The notes under the pieces: model-generated
What the model was told of the DNA's origin: nothing
What the model saw: the letters and a program-made list of their open reading frames with translations, nothing else
Database searches by the model: none
In this document: in pieces, positions 3,495 through 61,941 of the stretch
Numbering within the stretch: position 1 is the stretch's first letter
Layout of the letters: the number at the start of each line of letters is the position of its first letter
Origin: Escherichia phage vB_EcoM_ASO2A
Sequence record: MZ726793.1
Strand: one strand, 5' to 3'
Length of the DNA stretch: 64,000 bases
Translations under genes and position numbers: made by a program

Positions 3495-3552
3495 TTGACA
3501 CCGATCCCCAATATGGTACTATTTACCACGTAGGCGGGAAATGGTTTCCCGC
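3495..3552 (+). promoter_or_regulatory. promoter + 5' hairpin cassette, copy 8
   Basis: -35 TTGACA 3495-3500, -10 TACTAT 3517-3522, cacgTAGGCGGGAAAtggTTTCCCGCC from 3531. Confidence 0.6.
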
Positions 3553-3576
3553 CAGGTAATCAAAAAGGTAAATACT

Positions 3577-3966
3577 ATGCGCAACCTGGTTTCTGTTTCT
3601 AACGTTGAAAAATTTCAATCTTTACAGGGTATCGTTAACAACGTAGCGCCTTTTTTAGTCAACGGCTTGATTGCAAAGATGAAAAATAAACATCATGCGG
3701 CATGGTCTGCTTACTGCTTTGATAATGATGAAAAAGCGGCTGAAATGATGCTAAATATGCTGTTAGACAGTGTAGAATCATCTTTACCGGAAAACATCGC
3801 AGAAGAGATCACCTATCGTTATAATATGGCGATCACTTACCAGGAGGTTGCGCAATTTAATATGATGGACGATGACGAACAACAGGATCAGGAAATGTTT
3901 TGGGAGTATGCTGATCGTCAATCGGCTTTTGATGAAAAATTAGCGATGTATTATAACGAATATTAA
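3577..3966 (+). CDS. hypothetical protein (129 aa)
   Basis: aaaaggtaaatactATG; track start 3541 lies inside the hairpin. Confidence 0.6.
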   Translation: MRNLVSVSNVEKFQSLQGIVNNVAPFLVNGLIAKMKNKHHAAWSAYCFDNDEKAAEMMLNMLLDSVESSLPENIAEEITYRYNMAITYQEVAQFNMMDDDEQQDQEMFWEYADRQSAFDEKLAMYYNEY

Positions 3967-3983
3967 TACACGGTAAAAGAAAG

Positions 3984-4006
3984 GGGCGCACTAAGCGCCC
4001 TTTTTT
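3984..4006 (+). terminator. Rho-independent terminator, conserved hairpin copy 2
   Basis: GGGCGCACTAAGCGCCC + tttttt. Confidence 0.75.
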
Positions 4007-4071
4007 GTATTCTTTTTTCACGATGGAAACAACACGTAAAGAATAGGCGTAAAGGTGGCGTAAAACCATCT

Positions 4072-4164
4072 AAAACCGACTGTAACCGCTTAAACAAGGT
4101 AGGAATGATTAATCACCTTACCAGGATGAAAAAGCCGTTATAAAGCTATCTAGAGCGTTTAAAG
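4072..4164 (+). repeat. post-terminator non-coding module, copy 1 (related to 5180-5296)
   Basis: shares aaaaccgac ... taccagg..gccgtta.a.agc.at.tagagcg.ttaaa with copy 2, roughly 60-70 percent identical by eye. Confidence 0.45.
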
Positions 4165-4351
4165 CACATAGGAAATAATTTGCTTTTTATCTTGCCTTTT
4201 ACCCTGCTTTTGATTATTATTATGGAACGGGCGGCACCTGGAAGCAGGGGAAGATAATCACCGGAAGACCCCGCTATATATTGATAGCTAACATCTATCA
4301 AACAACAAAACATCAAAGAGATAAACTATCAAATCTTTACAATCCTACCTA

Positions 4352-4410
4352 TTGACACCGGATCACGCTTACATTATCATTTATCACGTAGGGCGGGAAT
4401 GTTTCCCGCC
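4352..4410 (+). promoter_or_regulatory. promoter + 5' hairpin cassette, copy 9
   Basis: -35 TTGACA 4352-4357, -10 TATCAT 4375-4380, cacgTAGGGCGGGAAtgTTTCCCGCC from 4389. Confidence 0.6.
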
Positions 4411-4428
4411 TGATTTAGGAGTCATATC

Positions 4429-4662
4429 ATGATCGAACAAATTAAAAGCACTAAACCAAATGTTAACGGTAATGTTTCTCACTTTATCGGGGATAATGAA
4501 AGAGGTACACCGTACGCCGCCGTAACCGTTCAACCGAACGGGGATTATTGGTTTACCGTGTACGGATCTTACTCTTTTGGACGTTCGGCACATGATAAGA
4601 TCTTGCAAGTGGTTAAGCCTACTGGGAAGAATATCACAGCAGAAAAATTTTATAAAAAATAA
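4429..4662 (+). CDS. hypothetical protein (77 aa)
   Basis: ttaggagtcatatcATG. Confidence 0.6.
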   Translation: MIEQIKSTKPNVNGNVSHFIGDNERGTPYAAVTVQPNGDYWFTVYGSYSFGRSAHDKILQVVKPTGKNITAEKFYKK

Positions 4663-4663
4663 C

Positions 4664-4723
4664 TTGCTTTATAGCTCCTGTTAACTTATAGTTATTGCGT
4701 AGGGCGAGCAATACAGCAAGCCC
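4664..4723 (+). promoter_or_regulatory. promoter + 5' hairpin cassette, copy 10
   Basis: -35 TTGCTT 4664-4669, -10 TATAGT 4687-4692, tgcgTAGGGCgagcaatacagcaaGCCC from 4700. Confidence 0.5.
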
Positions 4724-4741
4724 ACAAAGAGGAAAATAAAA

Positions 4742-5110
4742 ATGAGCAAATCAGCAATTAAAGCACTTGAAAAAGCACAAGAAGTGATCGCAACGTCAAC
4801 CACTGGCGCAAAGGTTAATCTTGTTGGTTATCTGACAGATGAAACTATCCGTAAAAATTGGCGTAATGCTGATTTACTGGCTTGCTTATTGATTAATAGT
4901 GTCGCTAATGCTTTCCAGTGCGAAACAGCCGAGAGCCTGGAGGAAAACTTGTTTGATAATATGGATCAAGCCATTGAAACCTATATACAATCAAACATGG
5001 ATAGCTGGAACAGTAAAACATGGCCCGACAATTTACGCGATACAACTGATCAACTGATCCGCCTTGCCCTGATGGTTGAACGCGATAACGTTCACAACCG
5101 CACAAAGTAA
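4742..5110 (+). CDS. hypothetical protein (122 aa)
   Basis: aaagaggaaaataaaaATG. Confidence 0.6.
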   Translation: MSKSAIKALEKAQEVIATSTTGAKVNLVGYLTDETIRKNWRNADLLACLLINSVANAFQCETAESLEENLFDNMDQAIETYIQSNMDSWNSKTWPDNLRDTTDQLIRLALMVERDNVHNRTK

Positions 5111-5121
5111 GATTATACAAG

Positions 5122-5147
5122 GGGCGCACTAAGCGCCCTTTCTTTTT
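5122..5147 (+). terminator. Rho-independent terminator, conserved hairpin copy 3
   Basis: GGGCGCACTAAGCGCCC + tttcttttt. Confidence 0.75.
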
Positions 5148-6659
5148 GCCTAAATAATGTTGATAGATTCCGCCTATGGAAAACCGACACAGAACAAAAC
5201 TGAATAAATAGCGGTATCGAGCTAATCAACCATTAAACGAATAACCATACCTCCCAGGGTAACAGGCTGTTAGAGAGCCATTTAGAGCGGTTAAAATCGA
5301 TCAACAACCAACAACAAACCATCAAAAACACCCTTTTACCTCCTTTCTAGTGCAATGATAACCATTATCATCTATCCATGTTTATCTATGCAATATAAGT
5401 GCATAACTATAATGTTGATAATAGTTCGCAACAACTAACTAACCAACAACCTAAAACAATAAGCAAACTAATCATAATCAAAGGAATAATAGCAAGATGA
5501 TTGATAACGACAAACAATCAAACTATGATGAATACTAAGCAAGATAACGATAATACGACAAAACAACCAACTAACGAACAATAACAAACGAAACCATTAA
5601 AATAATAACTATTAGCAAAATAGTGCCTGAATGAAATCATTACAAAACGAATCATTCACAGGATCATCATTAGCACGCTATGCCGGACACATAGCGAGCT
5701 AATAATAAGCCAACTACACCCCAACAATCATAACCATCGGTGATGGTTATTTCTTGTTACTGCGTAGCTTGCAATAATTGCAAGCGTAATACGCTTACAC
5801 TTATTGCGCTGGCTTATTATTAGCATTATATGTAATTACCAAGATCATAACATTAGCGCAATAACAATAATCATTGTGGTAATTACAAGATGAAATCATT
5901 AGCAAGATGAATAATTGCACGTAGCAACATGAGCGAATAGCGACAGGTTGCATAGTGTGCACATAGATGTACACGCAGTGTATAAACATACAAGAAAATA
6001 AAGGCTAATCTTTCGGGGGCGAATACTATCGCGTAGCGATATGTTGAGCATCTTCTCTTAAACGTAAATAAAATCAGAAAATTCTTGATTTATTTTAGTT
6101 TTTATGTTAATAAACGTTTAAATAATAATCATTCTCATATAAATAATAGTCTGCTTGTCATGAGCGGGATCAGTTGACAATGTTCCGTCATATGATGAAG
6201 TTGCCAAACCATTGATAAATAAGTGTTTGTGTGATTTATAATCAAGTGGCCCACCTTGTCGCTATGTTGGCATGAGCCTTGCATAAGTCCTTGAATACGA
6301 ATGATAATTATTCTCATTCTCATGATATTTGGGAATTGTCGCTGCGTGGACCTGACGGCCCGAAAATTCGCGTTAAGCACTTCTTACGTATGCGCCATGA
6401 TTTTTGCCATATGATATTGATTCTATTAGATATTCTTGCCATGATTGCCATGAAACAGGGTGTCCCGAAATAATCTCTCCCCGTAGATATTTTGGGTTAC
6501 TTTTTATACAAGAGTGGGGTGTCAAAAATAATCGGTATATATGGGATAATTGATAGGAATCCCCTATGATAATTCGATTGTAATTCCCTGAGATTGATCG
6601 TATGATGTTGGTGATTGATGATTGCCATGAAAGATGGCTAACGATGAGAGGAGATTATC
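5148..6659. other. 1.5 kb gene-free, repeat- and palindrome-rich region
   Basis: no credible ORF. Plus strand is A+C rich and G poor over about 5280-5720. AGCAAGAT(G/A)A occurs at 5491, 5538, 5901. ATCATTAGCA occurs at 5666, 5895. Palindromes at 5730-5750, 5767-5785, 5782-5796. GATTGCCATGAAA occurs at 6443 and 6620. Confidence 0.6.
5180..5296 (+). repeat. post-terminator non-coding module, copy 2
   Basis: see 4072-4164. Confidence 0.45.
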
Positions 6660-7034
6660 ATGCAAGAGAGTAAAAATGTTCCGTTGAGTAGTGCAACATT
6701 GCTTCGCTTCTATAAAGCATGGATTGCCAACTATCCTGCAATGAATCGCACAACGAGTGGCTTATGTGGTTGTCTGGTGGATTATGTAGATGATTTTGTT
6801 GGTGAGACAACTAGAGAAGAAGATAGAAAATGGCGGGATAGTTTGTTGGACCGTTTGAAATATGAAATGAGGAAACAATTTACATGTGCAGGGCTGGACT
6901 ACAATCTTCCGTTCAATGCAGATTGCATGGATTACCTTTCAGAGTGTATAAACTTGGCGTGTCATACCAACACGTTACGTCTTCAATGGGTGAAAGACAG
7001 AATTGAAGATGCAAATAATGCTTGCATTGAATAA
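6660..7034 (+). CDS. GLC/WVKD paralog family, member 1 (124 aa)
   Basis: SD gagaggag; FYKAW, GLCGC, EMRKQF, LPFN, RLQWVKDR. Confidence 0.7.
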   Translation: MQESKNVPLSSATLLRFYKAWIANYPAMNRTTSGLCGCLVDYVDDFVGETTREEDRKWRDSLLDRLKYEMRKQFTCAGLDYNLPFNADCMDYLSECINLACHTNTLRLQWVKDRIEDANNACIE

Positions 7035-19968: not shown

Positions 19969-20261
19969 TTAATAGATGGTAGATAGATGATCATAGTTTA
20001 TCTACCTTCACTTACGTTTCATACCTCACTATCGTGAGTAACATGAAACATTATTATATAGAAATCTACTACTCGCTATCGCTCGTAAACATATGTTTAG
20101 GGTACCATATTTTTTTGAAAAAGTCAATGTTGATTCACCTATCAATTATCTGTTTAAGATAAATCTTACCTATCAATCTAACTCTTAACTAGTATTGCAC
20201 CTATAGTAAGACTATTCCTATAGTTATTAACCCTCTTCTTCTGTAGAATGTAATTAGATCC

Positions 20262-58267: not shown

Positions 58268-58545
58268 TTTGCATTCCTCTTGTTGTTGATAACATCCATA
58301 GCAGTATATGGTTTATTAGTGCCATGATACTCCAGAATCATTGGAGAGCCTTCTTGCACTACTTCAAAGATACCATAAACAGAACTTTCAGCAAATACCA
58401 TTTGCTTCGTGCCTTCATCGTTTACAACGAGAGAAAACTTCTTGCCTGTCCCGTTGAGGATCTCGTATTTCTTGCCAGCAGTGAATAATCCAGAGTACCA
58501 CTCATTATCTGTTGCTTTTACACACTTCAGGAAAGTCTTGATCAT
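58264..58545 (-). CDS. hypothetical protein (93 aa)
   Basis: ATGA overlap. Confidence 0.55.
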   Translation of the reverse strand: MIKTFLKCVKATDNEWYSGLFTAGKKYEILNGTGKKFSLVVNDEGTKQMVFAESSVYGIFEVVQEGSPMILEYHGTNKPYTAMDVINNKRNAK

Positions 58546-58895
58546 TTCTTTTTGCTCCTCTTTTTAGATTTCTCATACAAACCTAACACAGCCGCTTCTT
58601 TTGCACAAGTAGGAACTGAAGTCATCCCTCTTCTTTTTGCTTCTGGTAGTTGCAAAGTCCATATTCCCCACCAATAAATTTGGTCTGCCGTGAGTGGTTC
58701 AGCCATTGGATCTGCCTCCTGCTCCTCAAGACGTTGCAACGCTTCTTCAATCTTCTCGATTGGTGTGTCAAAGACGAATGCCTCCGTATCAAATTTATCT
58801 TTCTTAGGAACTGATTTGGCTACTTTGAGAACCTCGTTTTTCGGTTTCTTAGTAACGTTCTTTGGCTTTGATAACTTCTTCGGTGTTTTCGCCAC
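58542..58895 (-). CDS. lysine-rich basic protein (117 aa)
   Basis: SD ggagg then GTG; MAKTPKKLSKPKNVTKKPKN... Confidence 0.55.
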   Translation of the reverse strand: MAKTPKKLSKPKNVTKKPKNEVLKVAKSVPKKDKFDTEAFVFDTPIEKIEEALQRLEEQEADPMAEPLTADQIYWWGIWTLQLPEAKRRGMTSVPTCAKEAAVLGLYEKSKKRSKKK

Positions 58896-59088
58896 TTACT
58901 ACCTCCATACGATCTAAAAAGTCATTCACAAATCTCCAGTAACGTTGACCTGTTCTAAGATCTTCATAGATAACCACAGGATCAAACACTTTAGATATTC
59001 CGGCAGGTTTTGGAAATTCCACTACTGTATATAAACCACCTTTTGCTACACAAGAATAGGTTACGCCTGTAATTGGATAGTTGCTCAT
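58849..59088 (-). CDS. hypothetical protein (79 aa)
   Basis: ATGA overlap; 47-nt overlap with the next gene. Confidence 0.5.
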   Translation of the reverse strand: MSNYPITGVTYSCVAKGGLYTVVEFPKPAGISKVFDPVVIYEDLRTGQRYWRFVNDFLDRMEVVSGENTEEVIKAKERY

Positions 59089-59279
59089 TTCTTTACGTAC
59101 TCCATGATTGGGGTATGGTCGCCAGTAAGCGTAACACGGCTGTAGGACACATCTTGTGTCTTCAACGTATCAATCCACTCTAAGAAGTGTTCTTTAGCTT
59201 CTGTGTAGTTCTGTGTGCCTTTAACAACGTGTATACCATCTAGCGTTACACGGAATACCATTTGAATAACGTCTTTCAT
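59085..59279 (-). CDS. hypothetical protein (64 aa)
   Basis: SD aaaggagg. Confidence 0.55.
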   Translation of the reverse strand: MKDVIQMVFRVTLDGIHVVKGTQNYTEAKEHFLEWIDTLKTQDVSYSRVTLTGDHTPIMEYVKK

Positions 59280-59391
59280 TTCTTACCTCCTTTGTTGTCA
59301 AAGTAGCTTACCAGAACATCGTGAACCACACACATGGCAAAAATCAGAACAATTGTTGCCAGGATTGGGTTCTCACTAATTAGTGCTATCA
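59275..59391 (-). CDS. 38-aa membrane peptide
   Basis: not in track; SD ggaggtgg; MIALISENPILATIVLIFAMCVVHDVLV... Confidence 0.45.
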
Positions 59392-59699
59392 TCTTTAACC
59401 ACCTCCAATTGCCTTTCTAGTTTGACTCTGTTTGAGAACTGATAATGACACAACTTACATTGCATGTCAACAATCTGATCGTGATTTAACCCTACAATTT
59501 TAACTTCCTTTGCACCATCCCACTCCAAATACTCAAAGCCATCCAAATGATTACTCTTGTACAACAGGAATGCTATCTGCTTCCATTCAATCTGAATATC
59601 ATTTAAATGATATGCTGCACAGAAGATATCCTCATAGTAAAAGACGATCATTGTCATTGCTTCGTCAAGTACAACTACCTCTTGTCTTGTAAATCTCAT
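59376..59699 (-). CDS. hypothetical protein (107 aa), first gene of the minus-strand block
   Basis: SD taggagg; leader hairpin GCGTCagaGACGC. Confidence 0.6.
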   Translation of the reverse strand: MRFTRQEVVVLDEAMTMIVFYYEDIFCAAYHLNDIQIEWKQIAFLLYKSNHLDGFEYLEWDGAKEVKIVGLNHDQIVDMQCKLCHYQFSNRVKLERQLEVVKDDSTN

Positions 59700-60178
59700 T
59701 CTAGCCTCCTAAACGCGTCTCTGACGCACTTTTATATATAAGATGATAAATCACCTTACCTAGTAAGTAAACTTGCTCTACAGCCTCTTATGAAGCTTAT
59801 GTTATAGGCTATACTATTGCTACCTGTTTAAGCAAGGTTTTTGCACACAGAAAATAATTTTTAATAAAACTCTTGACTTTTGTGTTCGAAGTATGCTACC
59901 CTAGAAATCTATTAACGAGCGCAGCGAGTTAAGGTTTTAGGTTGGTGATGTAGTACTCTGTACTCAAGTACTGTACTCCGTACTAGATTAATAATTATTA
60001 AATATTAATAATAAATAATTATTAGATCTAACAAACAGGTACAGTGTATCAGAACTGGTACGTACAGATCAACTTCTATCAATTAAAAATAAAATAATAA
60101 ATTATTATAAATAATACTTGATCTATAGATTAGTATGAAGTACAGTACGAAACATCTTAACAAGAATGGAGGTGTGCA
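59700..60178. other. divergent intergenic region with a GTAC(T) array and two pure A/T tracts
   Basis: GTACT at 59953, 59960, 59968, 59973, 59980. GTAC at 60039, 60058, 60062, 60140, 60145. A/T-only runs at 59987-60024 and 60081-60116. Three GATC sites. Confidence 0.6.
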
Positions 60179-60364
60179 ATGATTAGTGAGAATCCGTGCA
60201 AATGGCATCATGTGCCTATTAAAGATTGTATGTCTTGTAATCCACGTTCTATTTATAACATTGCATCTTATGATGATGACAATGTGTTAGACGATGATGA
60301 AGGCTGGGAGGATTTAGATTGGACTGGTTATGAAACCAAAAAGGATAAAATTATTCCTAGTTGA
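60179..60364 (+). CDS. hypothetical acidic protein (61 aa)
   Basis: SD ggaggtg. Confidence 0.55.
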   Translation: MISENPCKWHHVPIKDCMSCNPRSIYNIASYDDDNVLDDDEGWEDLDWTGYETKKDKIIPS

Positions 60365-60389
60365 CTTAAGATATCCTTCGTGCTAAACT
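60361..60389 (+). promoter_or_regulatory. extended -10 promoter
   Basis: TTGACT 60361-60366, 17 nt, TGcTAAACT ending at 60389. Confidence 0.5.
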
Positions 60390-60401
60390 AGAAGTGAGGA
60401 G

Positions 60402-60653
60402 ATGCCGATCACTCCCCATTTGGGGTTCGAAGGATATATGCAAAATAGCTTTTATTTTAGGTGCCGTGCTTGTAATAGGCATTTGACAAACCACTCCAGA
60501 CGTGATAAAAATGGAGTCATCAAGGAATCAGACCTCTGTTCTATTTGCACAGGTTTGGCTTTTGATGATAGTCCCGAAAGGGTTTATCAGCATCAATGTA
60601 TAACAGACGTTCTCGTGTCAAACTTGGTAGAGGACGAACAACTAACAGATTAG
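60402..60653 (+). CDS. zinc-ribbon protein (83 aa)
   Basis: CRACNRH ... CSIC; start may instead be ATG 60438. Confidence 0.5.
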   Translation: MPITPHLGFEGYMQNSFYFRCRACNRHLTNHSRRDKNGVIKESDLCSICTGLAFDDSPERVYQHQCITDVLVSNLVEDEQLTD

Positions 60654-60661
60654 GAGGAACA

Positions 60662-60910
60662 ATGTCTCTATTAGAAAAACACGTGTTTGAAGATGGTAAC
60701 GGCAATGCAGTTTTTCTTTTCCATCCAGAAAAATACACATCTGAAAACAATGGTACAACTTCTATTGTAATCACTAAAGATGTTAAAGTTATTGATTTCT
60801 TGGCTCTGATGCGAGAGATGGATCTTGAAATTAATACTTTTAACGCAGAAGCTTTGGTTGTTGCTCTTCTGGAAAAGAAAGATAGTGAAGAAGTAGCAGA
60901 ATATGCTTAA
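60662..60910 (+). CDS. hypothetical protein (82 aa)
   Basis: SD taggagg then ATG 60662. Confidence 0.6.
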   Translation: MSLLEKHVFEDGNGNAVFLFHPEKYTSENNGTTSIVITKDVKVIDFLALMREMDLEINTFNAEALVVALLEKKDSEEVAEYA

Positions 60911-60917
60911 ATAACTA

Positions 60918-60947
60918 TTGACAAACGTATCCTTCATATGTTAGGAT
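60918..60947 (+). promoter_or_regulatory. tRNA-operon promoter P1 (CTATTGACAA type, extended -10)
   Basis: TTGACA 60918-60923, 18 nt, TGtTAGGAT ending at 60947; 9-bp inverted repeat ACGTATCCT/AGGATACGT at 60925-60951. Confidence 0.6.
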
Positions 60948-60960
60948 ACGTTCATCAAGT

Positions 60961-61150
60961 GTGGTAACAGGGTCGTTGACTTTTGTTAAGAGGGGCTTGC
61001 ACTGCGGTAGTGTTAGAGACTACTTCTTCAGAGGTTAGCTACCAAAGAGGAAAAGGAATAGTCTCGGCTCAAGAACTTTTACGCTGAAAGTTGGGCTTGG
61101 TCTTAGAGAATGTAGCGGTTCTCTACAATCGTCAGCGTCTCTGTTACCAC
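60961..61150 (+). ncRNA. about 190-nt structured non-tRNA RNA, first transcript element of the tRNA operon
   Basis: 10-bp closing stem GTGGTAACAG (60961-60970) / CTGTTACCAC (61141-61150), extendable by cgttgac/gtcagcg; no ORF; ends 6 nt before tRNA-Met. Confidence 0.4.
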
Positions 61151-61156
61151 ATTTAT

Positions 61157-61231
61157 GGCCCTGTAGCTCAATGGGAGAGCTGTCGGCTCATAACCGATAG
61201 GTAGCTGGATCGAAACCAGCCAGGGCCACCA
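61157..61231 (+). tRNA. tRNA-Met (CAT), CCA encoded
   Basis: acceptor GGCCCTG/CAGGGCC, anticodon loop CTCATAA, T arm GCTGG-ATCGAAA-CCAGC. Confidence 0.85.
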
Positions 61232-61233
61232 AC

Positions 61234-61308
61234 GTCTTTATGGTGTAATGGATAGCACAGGAGTCTTCTAAACTCTTAGTCAAGGTTCGATTCCTTGTAA
61301 AGACACCA
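61234..61308 (+). tRNA. tRNA-Arg (TCT), CCA encoded
   Basis: acceptor GTCTTTA/TAAAGAC, loop CTTCTAA, T arm CAAGG-TTCGATT-CCTTG. Confidence 0.85.
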
Positions 61309-61309
61309 G

Positions 61310-61492
61310 AACATTTTAACATGAATTAGCTCAAGTGATTTGAACCCACTACTGATCATGGTGGCAGAGAATGAGGCAAGTATGTCAGACATTATAAACA
61401 AAGGCCACGGTTATATTAGAAGACATAAATGCTCGAAGAGCACCGTTCGTGGAGAACGGGGTTGGTGGAGTCACCATTCATGGTAAAATGTT
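61310..61492 (+). ncRNA. about 180-nt structured non-tRNA RNA
   Basis: 17-nt closing stem AACATTTTAACATGAAT (61310-61326) / ATTCATGGTAAAATGTT (61476-61492), 16 of 17 paired; internal hairpin CCGTTCgtggaGAACGG. Confidence 0.45.
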
Positions 61493-61503
61493 TTAAAAAA
61501 CTA

Positions 61504-61853: not shown

Positions 61854-61941
61854 GGTGAGTTAATTCCGTAGGGGTAGCGGGGCAGACTGTAAATCTGTTA
61901 TCATTGCGATTCGGGTGGTTCGACTCCATCACTCACCACCA
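61854..61941 (+). tRNA. tRNA-Tyr (GTA), type II
   Basis: acceptor GGTGAGT/ACTCACC, A73, GCAGA-CTGTAAA-TCTGT as in E. coli tRNA-Tyr; D-arm junction atypical. Confidence 0.8.

Follow-up and report, generated by a model that had tools for sequence, protein, structure and literature searches.

A GTAC-rich divergent gap in a Phapecoctavirus genome as a candidate four-promoter control region

Introduction

Whether the 480-bp gap at 59700-60178 of Escherichia phage vB_EcoM_ASO2A is a replication origin, a regulatory hub or both is the question raised by an unusual cluster of GTAC words and pure A/T tracts within it. The gap lies in a 64,000-nucleotide stretch of sequence record MZ726793.1 (hereafter the window), and a first-pass annotation made from the letters alone had seen in it the classic layout of an origin, with repeated protein-binding boxes flanking easily melted DNA, or alternatively a binding array for a phage regulator. 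Few coliphages are isolated, or put forward for therapy, as often as Phapecoctavirus and its relatives; to our knowledge, nothing is known of how their transcription is organised or where their replication starts.

The region 58500-61500 was matched by 152 phage records, the top matches being Phapecoctavirus genomes of 99.7% and 99.6% identity. The source of the window is thus a Phapecoctavirus, a phAPEC8-like E. coli myophage of the subfamily Stephanstirmvirinae with a genome of ~150 kb. Genome-wide statistics were computed on 150 kb of PNJ1809-36, the 99.6% identical genome.

Results and Discussion

The GTAC cluster and A/T runs are unique within the genome

The gap is bounded by a minus-strand open reading frame (ORF) at 59376-59699 and a plus-strand ORF of 61 amino acids starting at 60179, in agreement with its earlier placement between a minus-strand and a plus-strand block. 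Ten GTAC sites, the number first counted for about 200 bp, fall within 196 bp, and the chance expectation, put at fewer than one, is 0.2 per 200 bp when taken from the genome's own GTAC frequency. No other 250-bp stretch of the window has more than three sites; in PNJ1809-36 the densest 200 bp, with 10 sites, is in the gap, and the runner-up has 4. Elsewhere the word is scarce. The window contains 70 GTAC, whereas a Markov model predicts 177 and base composition 225, and the 150 kb of PNJ1809-36 contain 160 against 461 expected. Observed/expected ratios of 0.35-0.39 correspond to about three-fold avoidance, which settles the point, raised in the first-pass annotation, of whether GTAC is depleted elsewhere in the genome. 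Because the ratio in a 50-kb sample of E. coli K-12 is 0.85, this avoidance is a property of the phage rather than of the host. The possibility that GTAC frequency in the gap would prove ordinary against genome-wide statistics therefore fails, the cluster lying far beyond chance.

The five-unit near-tandem GTACT array and the two A/T-only runs of 38 and 36 bp are present as first described (Table 1). Three GATC sites (60025, 60067 and 60120) are indeed interspersed among them; they do not represent an enrichment, three in 480 bp being about the genome average. Only three A/T-only runs of at least 25 bp occur in PNJ1809-36, and the two longest are both in the gap. Nearest-neighbour energies identified the gap as the least stable 40-bp and 200-bp stretch genome-wide (-216 kcal/mol over 200 bp; genome mean -258 +/- 9), and the cumulative GC skew reaches its global minimum there. 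The GTAC-rich, A/T-rich gap is real and unique within this genome.

Table 1. Coordinates of features in and beside the gap (window numbering; a dot denotes a feature given no strand)
Feature	Position	Strand	Remarks
P(-)prox, TTTACT-17-TATCAT	59743..59771	-	consensus scan; same-place promoter in phi92, FKP3, Tr1 and L037
19-bp A/T-only run	59851..59869	.	adjoins P1 -35; UP-like position
P1, extended -10, TTGACT (59873-78)-18-TGc-TACCCT (59897-59902)	59873..59902	+	predicted start near 59909
P1 leader hairpin, TTAAC-GAGCGCAGCGA-GTTAA	59912..59932	+	contains conserved word GAGCG(N1-2)AGCGAG
GTAC starts in gap	59953, 59960, 59968, 59973, 59980 (GTACT array); 60039, 60058, 60062, 60140, 60145		
GTACT array, GTACTCT GTACTCAA GTACT GTACTCC GTACT(AG)	59953..59984	.	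repeat family D4; in stretch predicted to be transcribed by P1 and P3
Imperfect inverted repeat I1	arms 59968-60023 and 60093-60148	.	71% complementary
A/T-only run 1, 38 bp	59987..60024	.	lineage-specific
P3, extended -10, TTGATC (60072-60067)-18-TGa-TACACT (60048-60043)	60043..60072	-	predicted start near 60036, facing P1
A/T-only run 2, 36 bp	60081..60116	.	fills space between -35 boxes of P3 and P2
P2, TTGATC (60118-23)-17-TACAGT (60141-46)	60118..60146	+	predicted start near 60153
Shine-Dalgarno GGAGG	60168-72	+	precedes 61-aa ORF
61-aa ORF	60179-60364	+	first gene, rightward block into tRNA cluster

Four promoters are predicted in the gap

Two independent scans predicted four sigma-70-type promoters in the gap. 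The leftmost, P(-)prox, has a predicted start near 59736(-) and lies ~40 nt upstream of the start of the minus-strand operon ORF at 59699. The extended -10 pattern TTGA[CT]N-N13-15-TGN-TANNNT, to which P1 and P3 conform, occurs 38 times in the genome as against 4.3 times in shuffles, and its matches stand mostly 20-100 nt 5' of a Shine-Dalgarno sequence plus ORF.

UP elements are A/T-rich blocks upstream of the -35 box, as at rrnB P1. An A/T content of 85% or more over the 45 bp preceding the -35 box was found for just three of the genome's 136 promoter-like matches: P2, P3 and one abutting the genome's third-longest A/T run. Run 2 occupies about -38 to -59 of both P3 and P2, the position of a UP element with the composition of one, and in our own comparison P2 agrees with the published UP consensus at 13 of 17 positions. 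Run 2 would thus be a UP element shared by the two promoters.

The predicted layout recurs in six lineages of the subfamily

The first gene of the leftward operon, of 107 amino acids, has homologues of 34-58% identity in diverged Stephanstirmvirinae including phi92, Klebsiella phage FKP3 and Citrobacter phage Tr1, and in these three the homologue opens a divergent gap of about 400-500 bp. With phiWec188/179, a divergent Phapecoctavirus clade, and L037, an IMG/VR contig, six lineages including the phAPEC8-like cluster were compared. The order and orientation of P(-)prox, P1, its leader, and P3-A/T run-P2 are kept in all six, while the intervening sequence cannot be aligned. The P1 -10 region GTATGCTACCCT is near-identical in the six lineages, each of which also keeps the leader word GAGCG(A/C)AGCGAG and an equivalent of run 2; in the other lineages this is a single A/T run flanked by P3 and P2. 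Promoter coordinates place the predicted P1/P3 transcript overlap at 128 nt here and at 90-98 nt in the five other lineages. Substitutions among near relatives point the same way: in phAPEC8 the GATC of the P3 -35 box is altered to give TTGATA, still a good -35, and in tuntematon only the free base of TGn in P1 is changed, a pattern fitting promoter constraint rather than constraint on GATC or GTAC. The suggestion of a regulatory hub at the divergent switch point is therefore supported, since four predicted promoters keep their layout in six diverged lineages.

Beyond Stephanstirmvirinae the hub could not be traced. The candidate counterpart in Seunavirus was rejected because the weak match to the 61-aa protein there is not syntenic, and that in rV5 because other genes flank its divergent point, a gap of 100 bp. 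A search of IMG/VR with the flanking 107-aa protein returned no relatives, and of 59 loci returned by a DNA-pattern scan only 8 were apparently related.

Two variants of the region were recorded in passing. The EP57 record (OR544956) lacks 38 bp comprising the P2 spacer, the P2 -10 box and the last two GTAC sites; as the whole record is only 130.7 kb, the loss may be genuine or may stem from faulty assembly. In the array-free lineages phiWec188 and Tr1, the interval that holds the array here has 4-5 GATC sites, mostly as AGATCT; the word GATCTAACA(G/A)AC recurs across array-free lineages, and several -35 boxes read TTGATC. Given these GATC sites and -35 boxes, Dam methylation of the hub promoters is possible.

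The GTAC excess has two apparent sources

Half of the GTAC sites are explained by the promoters, being part of the P3 and P2 cores. In P3 the site at 60039 lies between the -10 box and the start, and those at 60058 and 60062 lie in the spacer; the sites at 60140 and 60145 overlap the P2 -10 box (GTACAGTAC). The two -10 boxes share the form (G)TAC(A)(G/C)T(AC).

The remaining five sites form the array, which has a restricted distribution. Array and run 1 were found together in 63 phage records, all of the phAPEC8-like cluster, and over a 101-bp stretch covering both, 59 of the 63 records are at least 95% identical to the window and four are 86-94% identical. Conservation in related phages, the check proposed at first pass, does not extend further: the array is absent from phiWec188, phi92, FKP3 and Tr1, and outside the phAPEC8-like cluster its interval is filled by unrelated sequence or GATC-rich words. 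On this distribution, array and run 1 appear to be a recent, lineage-specific insertion into the predicted P1/P3 overlap.

The array itself suggests how it arose. Its 5-bp GTACT cores follow one another at 7, 8, 5 and 7 bp, and it contains a tandem pair spaced by 20 bp (GTACTCTGTACT and GTACTCCGTACT). The minus strand of array plus run 1 aligns to run 2 plus the P2 spacer and -10 box (TAGTACGGAGTACAGTAC vs TAGTATGAAGTACAGTAC) with an inverted gapped alignment score of 40, as against 25.5 +/- 3.8 (maximum 37) in block shuffles, 0 of 300 of which reached 40. In the simplest history, the P2 core and the sequence upstream of it would have been copied in inverted orientation, and a tandem duplication or slippage of ~20 bp would have come next. 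Copy number varies, dw-ec having 3 units, and a single GTAC site has been lost in phAPEC8 and another in anhysbys. Judged by its sequence, the gap is a slippage hotspot. Length differences were also seen in the A/T runs, with 12 bp more in run 2 of BI-EHEC and 3 bp fewer in run 1 of phAPEC8, and a motif just 5' of the array (AAGGTTTT, 59933-59947) has one copy here and three in anhysbys.

A proposed compound transcription-control region

These results are best explained, with moderate confidence, by a compound transcription-control region of four host-type (sigma-70) promoters. That the promoters are real is held more confidently than any statement about the role of the array. The GTAC excess would then come from two sources, five sites from the P3 and P2 cores and five from the lineage-specific insertion that brought run 1.

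Annotated relatives carry, to the left of the gap, a leftward nucleic-acid-metabolism block (RNA ligase, DNA ligase, exonucleases, ribonucleotide reductase and others) and, to the right, a rightward block running from the 61-aa ORF through 10-11 tRNA genes to terminase and structural genes. The leftward operon would be served by P(-)prox (proximal) and P3 (distal), and the rightward operon by P1 (distal) and P2 (proximal). Standing back-to-back around run 2, P3 and P2 would have a common UP region and so both be strong, which would suit the tRNA cluster beyond P2. As P1 and P3 face each other, their transcripts would overlap in antisense over about 128 nt and the firing of one would hinder the other. 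Such mutual interference could act as a toggle between the leftward metabolism genes and the rightward tRNA and late block.

The components are of known kinds: sigma-70 extended -10 promoters (TGn is present in P1 and P3), UP-like tracts and convergent promoters. The -35/-10 spacing of 17-18 bp and the A/T block at about -38 to -59 are shared with E. coli rrnB P1 and strong early promoters of T5 and T7, and, as in the rrnB P1 type, the hub would drive a stable-RNA (tRNA) cluster. Unlike that type, the hub has one 36-bp A/T block common to two back-to-back promoters, and a run 1 without a promoter. Convergent promoters with overlapping transcripts into opposed gene blocks, predicted in silico for the hub, are also found in phage 186 (pR/pL) and phage P2 (Pe/Pc). 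The present phage differs from these in being lytic and in having no recognisable repressor gene on either side, and its hub in an overlap of about 90-128 nt and a second, proximal promoter per operon outside the collision zone. New are an interleaving of four promoters that is conserved across a phage subfamily and a GTAC/A-T insertion confined to one lineage; no description of the hub, the array or the promoter-plus-leader module described below was found in the searchable literature, nor any GTAC study for the group.

Several points weigh against this explanation. No -35 box adjoins run 1, so the UP explanation leaves that run out, and pure A/T runs of 36-38 bp exceed the length of a canonical UP element. 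No relevant transcriptome was found in the literature for Phapecoctavirus or its subfamily, so that all four promoters are predictions. The exceptional duplex instability of the gap, with the two longest A/T-only runs, and the GC-skew minimum would suit an origin equally well. Retention of ten GTAC sites in 63 records despite about three-fold avoidance could mean selection on the motif itself, although conservation among these records is weak evidence because they are only 1-7% diverged.

The cluster is real if unexplained in detail, and for most of its striking features there is an ordinary reading, largely as promoter cores and a recent duplication, which tempers the claim of an origin. The analysis supplies testable coordinates for a four-promoter region across Stephanstirmvirinae and for a reusable promoter-plus-leader module.

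Within the A/T tracts one further promoter type was considered. A T4-type late promoter sequence (TATAAATA) occurs in run 2; it was rejected, having only 10 copies in the genome, which are not placed before late genes. A terminator scan of 59300-61300 gave a single match at 59715-59727 and none at the array or the A/T runs.

Possible replication initiation at the gap

The alternative that survives best is that the gap is, or also serves as, a transcription-activated origin, in which RNA made from P1 (or P3) would invade the easily melted A/T tracts, there to act as a primer or to open the duplex for a T7-like polymerase and primase-helicase. This we consider unlikely, though enough of a possibility to be taken seriously. 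Transcription-activated initiation is used at the T7 primary origin and at T4 oriF/oriG. Like those origins (phi1.1A/B plus an A/T-rich region in T7; a middle promoter plus a downstream unwinding element in T4), the hub has a promoter less than ~100 bp before the most meltable DNA: transcription from the predicted P1 start (~59909) would enter run 1 at 59987 about 80 nt on. The phage also has a T7-like replisome, encoding a family-A DNA polymerase and a gp4-type primase-helicase (annotation; PMC3606486), and the region has overall dyad symmetry. The likeness rests on sequence, and unlike the T7 and T4 origins the hub has promoters of the host sigma-70 type, with its conserved A/T tract upstream of them. 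GC skew cannot discriminate an origin here because it follows the direction of transcription, as it does at four of four strand switches; the authors of the rV5 study reached the same view on skew and transcription (PMC3606486). The conserved A/T run is, moreover, fully accounted for as a shared UP region, and run 1 and the array are not conserved beyond one species-level cluster. Neither iterons (repeat analysis) nor a recognisable neighbouring initiator gene (eight flanking ORFs against Pfam and PHROG) was found. Inspection of the gap by eye, with no formal scan, did not reveal DnaA boxes or convincing IHF or FIS sites, and no replication or origin study for this phage group was found in the literature. 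The gap is the single most likely place to look for an origin.

The specific layout proposed at first pass was not upheld as stated: the repeats are not iterons, half of the GTAC sites are promoter parts, and the array is lineage-specific. Short repeats beside an A/T-rich tract with GATC nearby do recall lambda ori, phage P1 oriR and theta plasmids. Iteron origins, however, have at least three direct repeats of ~17-22 bp (about 19-22 bp in those systems) in helical phase, whereas the array has 5-bp cores 5-8 bp apart. An adjacent A/T-rich unwinding element is there, in the form of the genome's two longest A/T-only runs and least stable 200 bp, while the repeats are not kept in relatives (phiWec188, phi92, FKP3, Tr1). 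An iteron origin was accordingly rejected: the repeats have the wrong size and phasing and are not conserved, and no initiator is recognisable beside the gap.

It is doubtful that array and run 1 are functional rather than a by-product of duplication. They could in that case be an unwinding and loading site that makes the hub the origin, or operators, controlled by GTAC methylation or by a protein, that time the switch from leftward (metabolism) to rightward (tRNA and late) expression. Genome-wide avoidance of GTAC would then keep the signal unique.

GTAC as a possible operator or methylation signal

More narrowly, the GTAC units might be operators for a sequence-specific DNA-binding protein, or a methylation-sensitive switch, through which P2 and the clash of P1 with P3 would be controlled, perhaps with a loop over the 172 bp between the two GTAC-N-GTAC sites. 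GTAC-N-GTAC occurs only twice in 150 kb, in the array and over the P2 -10 box, and GTAC is kept in the gap in the face of its avoidance elsewhere. Yet sister lineages have the same four-promoter hub without the array, the 5-8-bp spacing places successive sites on different faces of the helix, and the unit losses noted above (single sites in phAPEC8 and anhysbys, two units in dw-ec) have occurred. No candidate binder emerged, the small flanking proteins having no Pfam family at the curated cut-off. We hold operators of this kind to be improbable.

For modification of GTAC there is a further hint. Compared with window 15790-62882, BI-EHEC (OL505078) has 32 of 45 GTAC sites changed over 49 kb, coding regions included, mostly to ATAC and in several cases to GTATAC. 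BI-EHEC was assembled from nanopore reads only, with Guppy 4.0.11, Flye and Medaka (PMC8686590). Because the assembly is nanopore-only, the pattern looks like systematic miscalling at a modified motif, which would imply that GTAC was modified in that virion DNA and thus in at least one virion preparation. The phage also encodes an N6-adenine methyltransferase-like protein with an NPPF motif. This protein matches nothing in Pfam, NCBIfam or the PDB, so its target cannot be assigned, and dw-ec, from the same country as BI-EHEC, keeps GTAC (its sequencing method was not checked), a hint that the modification in BI-EHEC is of host rather than phage origin. The methyltransferase-like gene (MT944117.1 2399-3193, outside the window; 264 aa, with EPSAGEGAF and NPPFG motifs; annotation, N6-adenine DNA methyltransferase) sits between the DNA polymerase and primase-helicase genes.

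Avoidance in the phage is not confined to GTAC. Observed/expected ratios are 0.35 for GTAC, 0.40 for CCGG, 0.40 for GGCC and 1.0 for GATC, as against 0.85, 1.05 and 0.50 for GTAC, CCGG and GGCC in the K-12 sample. The avoided words are consistent with restriction avoidance, and the BASEL study found this phage group unusually sensitive to restriction-modification systems (PMC8594841).

The P1 leader and a possible role in RNA

A role of the array in the P1 RNA is quite improbable. In this reading the self-complementary GUAC units and the A/U tract would form an attenuator or a short leader RNA, or the P1/P3 antisense duplex would be processed. Folding of the 270-nt P1 leader was indeed better than that of shuffles (z = -3.1; 1 of 200 shuffles as good), with the array paired to 60130-60150; the array alone folds at -12.9 kcal/mol (z = -1.8), and P1 and P3 are predicted to be convergent. 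The paired segments are, however, the two arms of the inverted repeat, and the leader fold signal is expected anyway from an inverted duplication of DNA. Short folds were not significant, the tract 3' of the hairpin is mixed A/U and not a U run, no terminator-scan site falls at the array and no Rfam match falls in the gap.

The leader of P1 has a distinct feature of its own. A promoter-plus-leader module, TTGACT-N14-15-TG(C/G)TACCCT ... GAGCG(N1-2)AGCGAG, is present in three copies per Phapecoctavirus genome and at least two in Justusliebigvirus genomes; its sites are 59897-59928 (+) and 20072-20104 (-) in the window and ~31058 (-) in PNJ1809-36. The predicted hairpin has a GC/GC stem, a G-N(1-2)-A loop and flanking G.A pairs, and the flanking pairs partly co-vary (UUAAC/GUUAA, UUGCC/GGUAA, UGAC/GUUA). 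The module could be a regulatory RNA or DNA element. The hairpin is short and G/C-rich, has a G...A loop and comes about 10-25 nt downstream of the start, in which it resembles boxB of the lambda and P22 nut sites; it is kept across the subfamily and used again at other promoters. Unlike nut, the leader has no boxA or boxB sequence similarity and no N-like protein is known, so that the likeness is a resemblance only.

Genome ends and neighbouring genes

That the repeats mark a pac site or genome terminus, like the hexamer repeats of phage P1 pac, is hardly credible: short repeats do lie on both sides of an A/T-rich core, with the terminase gene about 3 kb downstream, and the GenBank record nieznany does start and end within the gap, but that break is at an A/T run, where assemblies often break, many Phapecoctavirus records begin 53-57 kb upstream of the gap, and the 342-bp direct terminal repeats of the sister-genus phage BME3, determined by PhageTerm (PMC12210895) and annotated in its record, align to window ~5100-6600, ~54 kb away, for which reason this reading was disfavoured. 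The 'repeat_region' features of three GenBank records were likewise set aside as 55-bp A/T tandem-repeat calls and not terminal repeats.

The genome ends are probably located at window ~3967-6659, judging from the alignment to BME3. This 2.7-kb segment of the early block lies between gene homologues at 3541-3966 and 6660-7034 and has only short, overlapping, unannotated ORFs of up to 122 aa. It aligns, at 70-80% identity, with the BME3 region that bears the 342-bp direct terminal repeats, and many Phapecoctavirus records start thereabouts. It also holds one of the genome's least stable 100-bp stretches (~6050) and is about 1.1 kb longer than in PNJ1809-36.

None of the eight ORFs flanking the gap has a Pfam family at the curated cut-off, and their best PHROGs are of unknown function; in the same comparisons the first genes to the left and right showed no DNA-binding domain. 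The 61-aa ORF matches PHROG 26411, also of unknown function. Its product, in which a C-x2-H-H ... C-x2-C pattern precedes a highly acidic tail (DDDNVLDDDEGWEDLDW), may be a small zinc-binding or DNA-mimic protein.

With Rfam 15, at gathering and permissive settings, only tRNAs reached gathering scores in the window, and the gap gave nothing better than E = 1. An eleventh tRNA, missed by ARAGORN, was called by Rfam at 61854-61938 (+) with 39 bits, where a tRNA-Tyr is annotated in PNJ1809-36.

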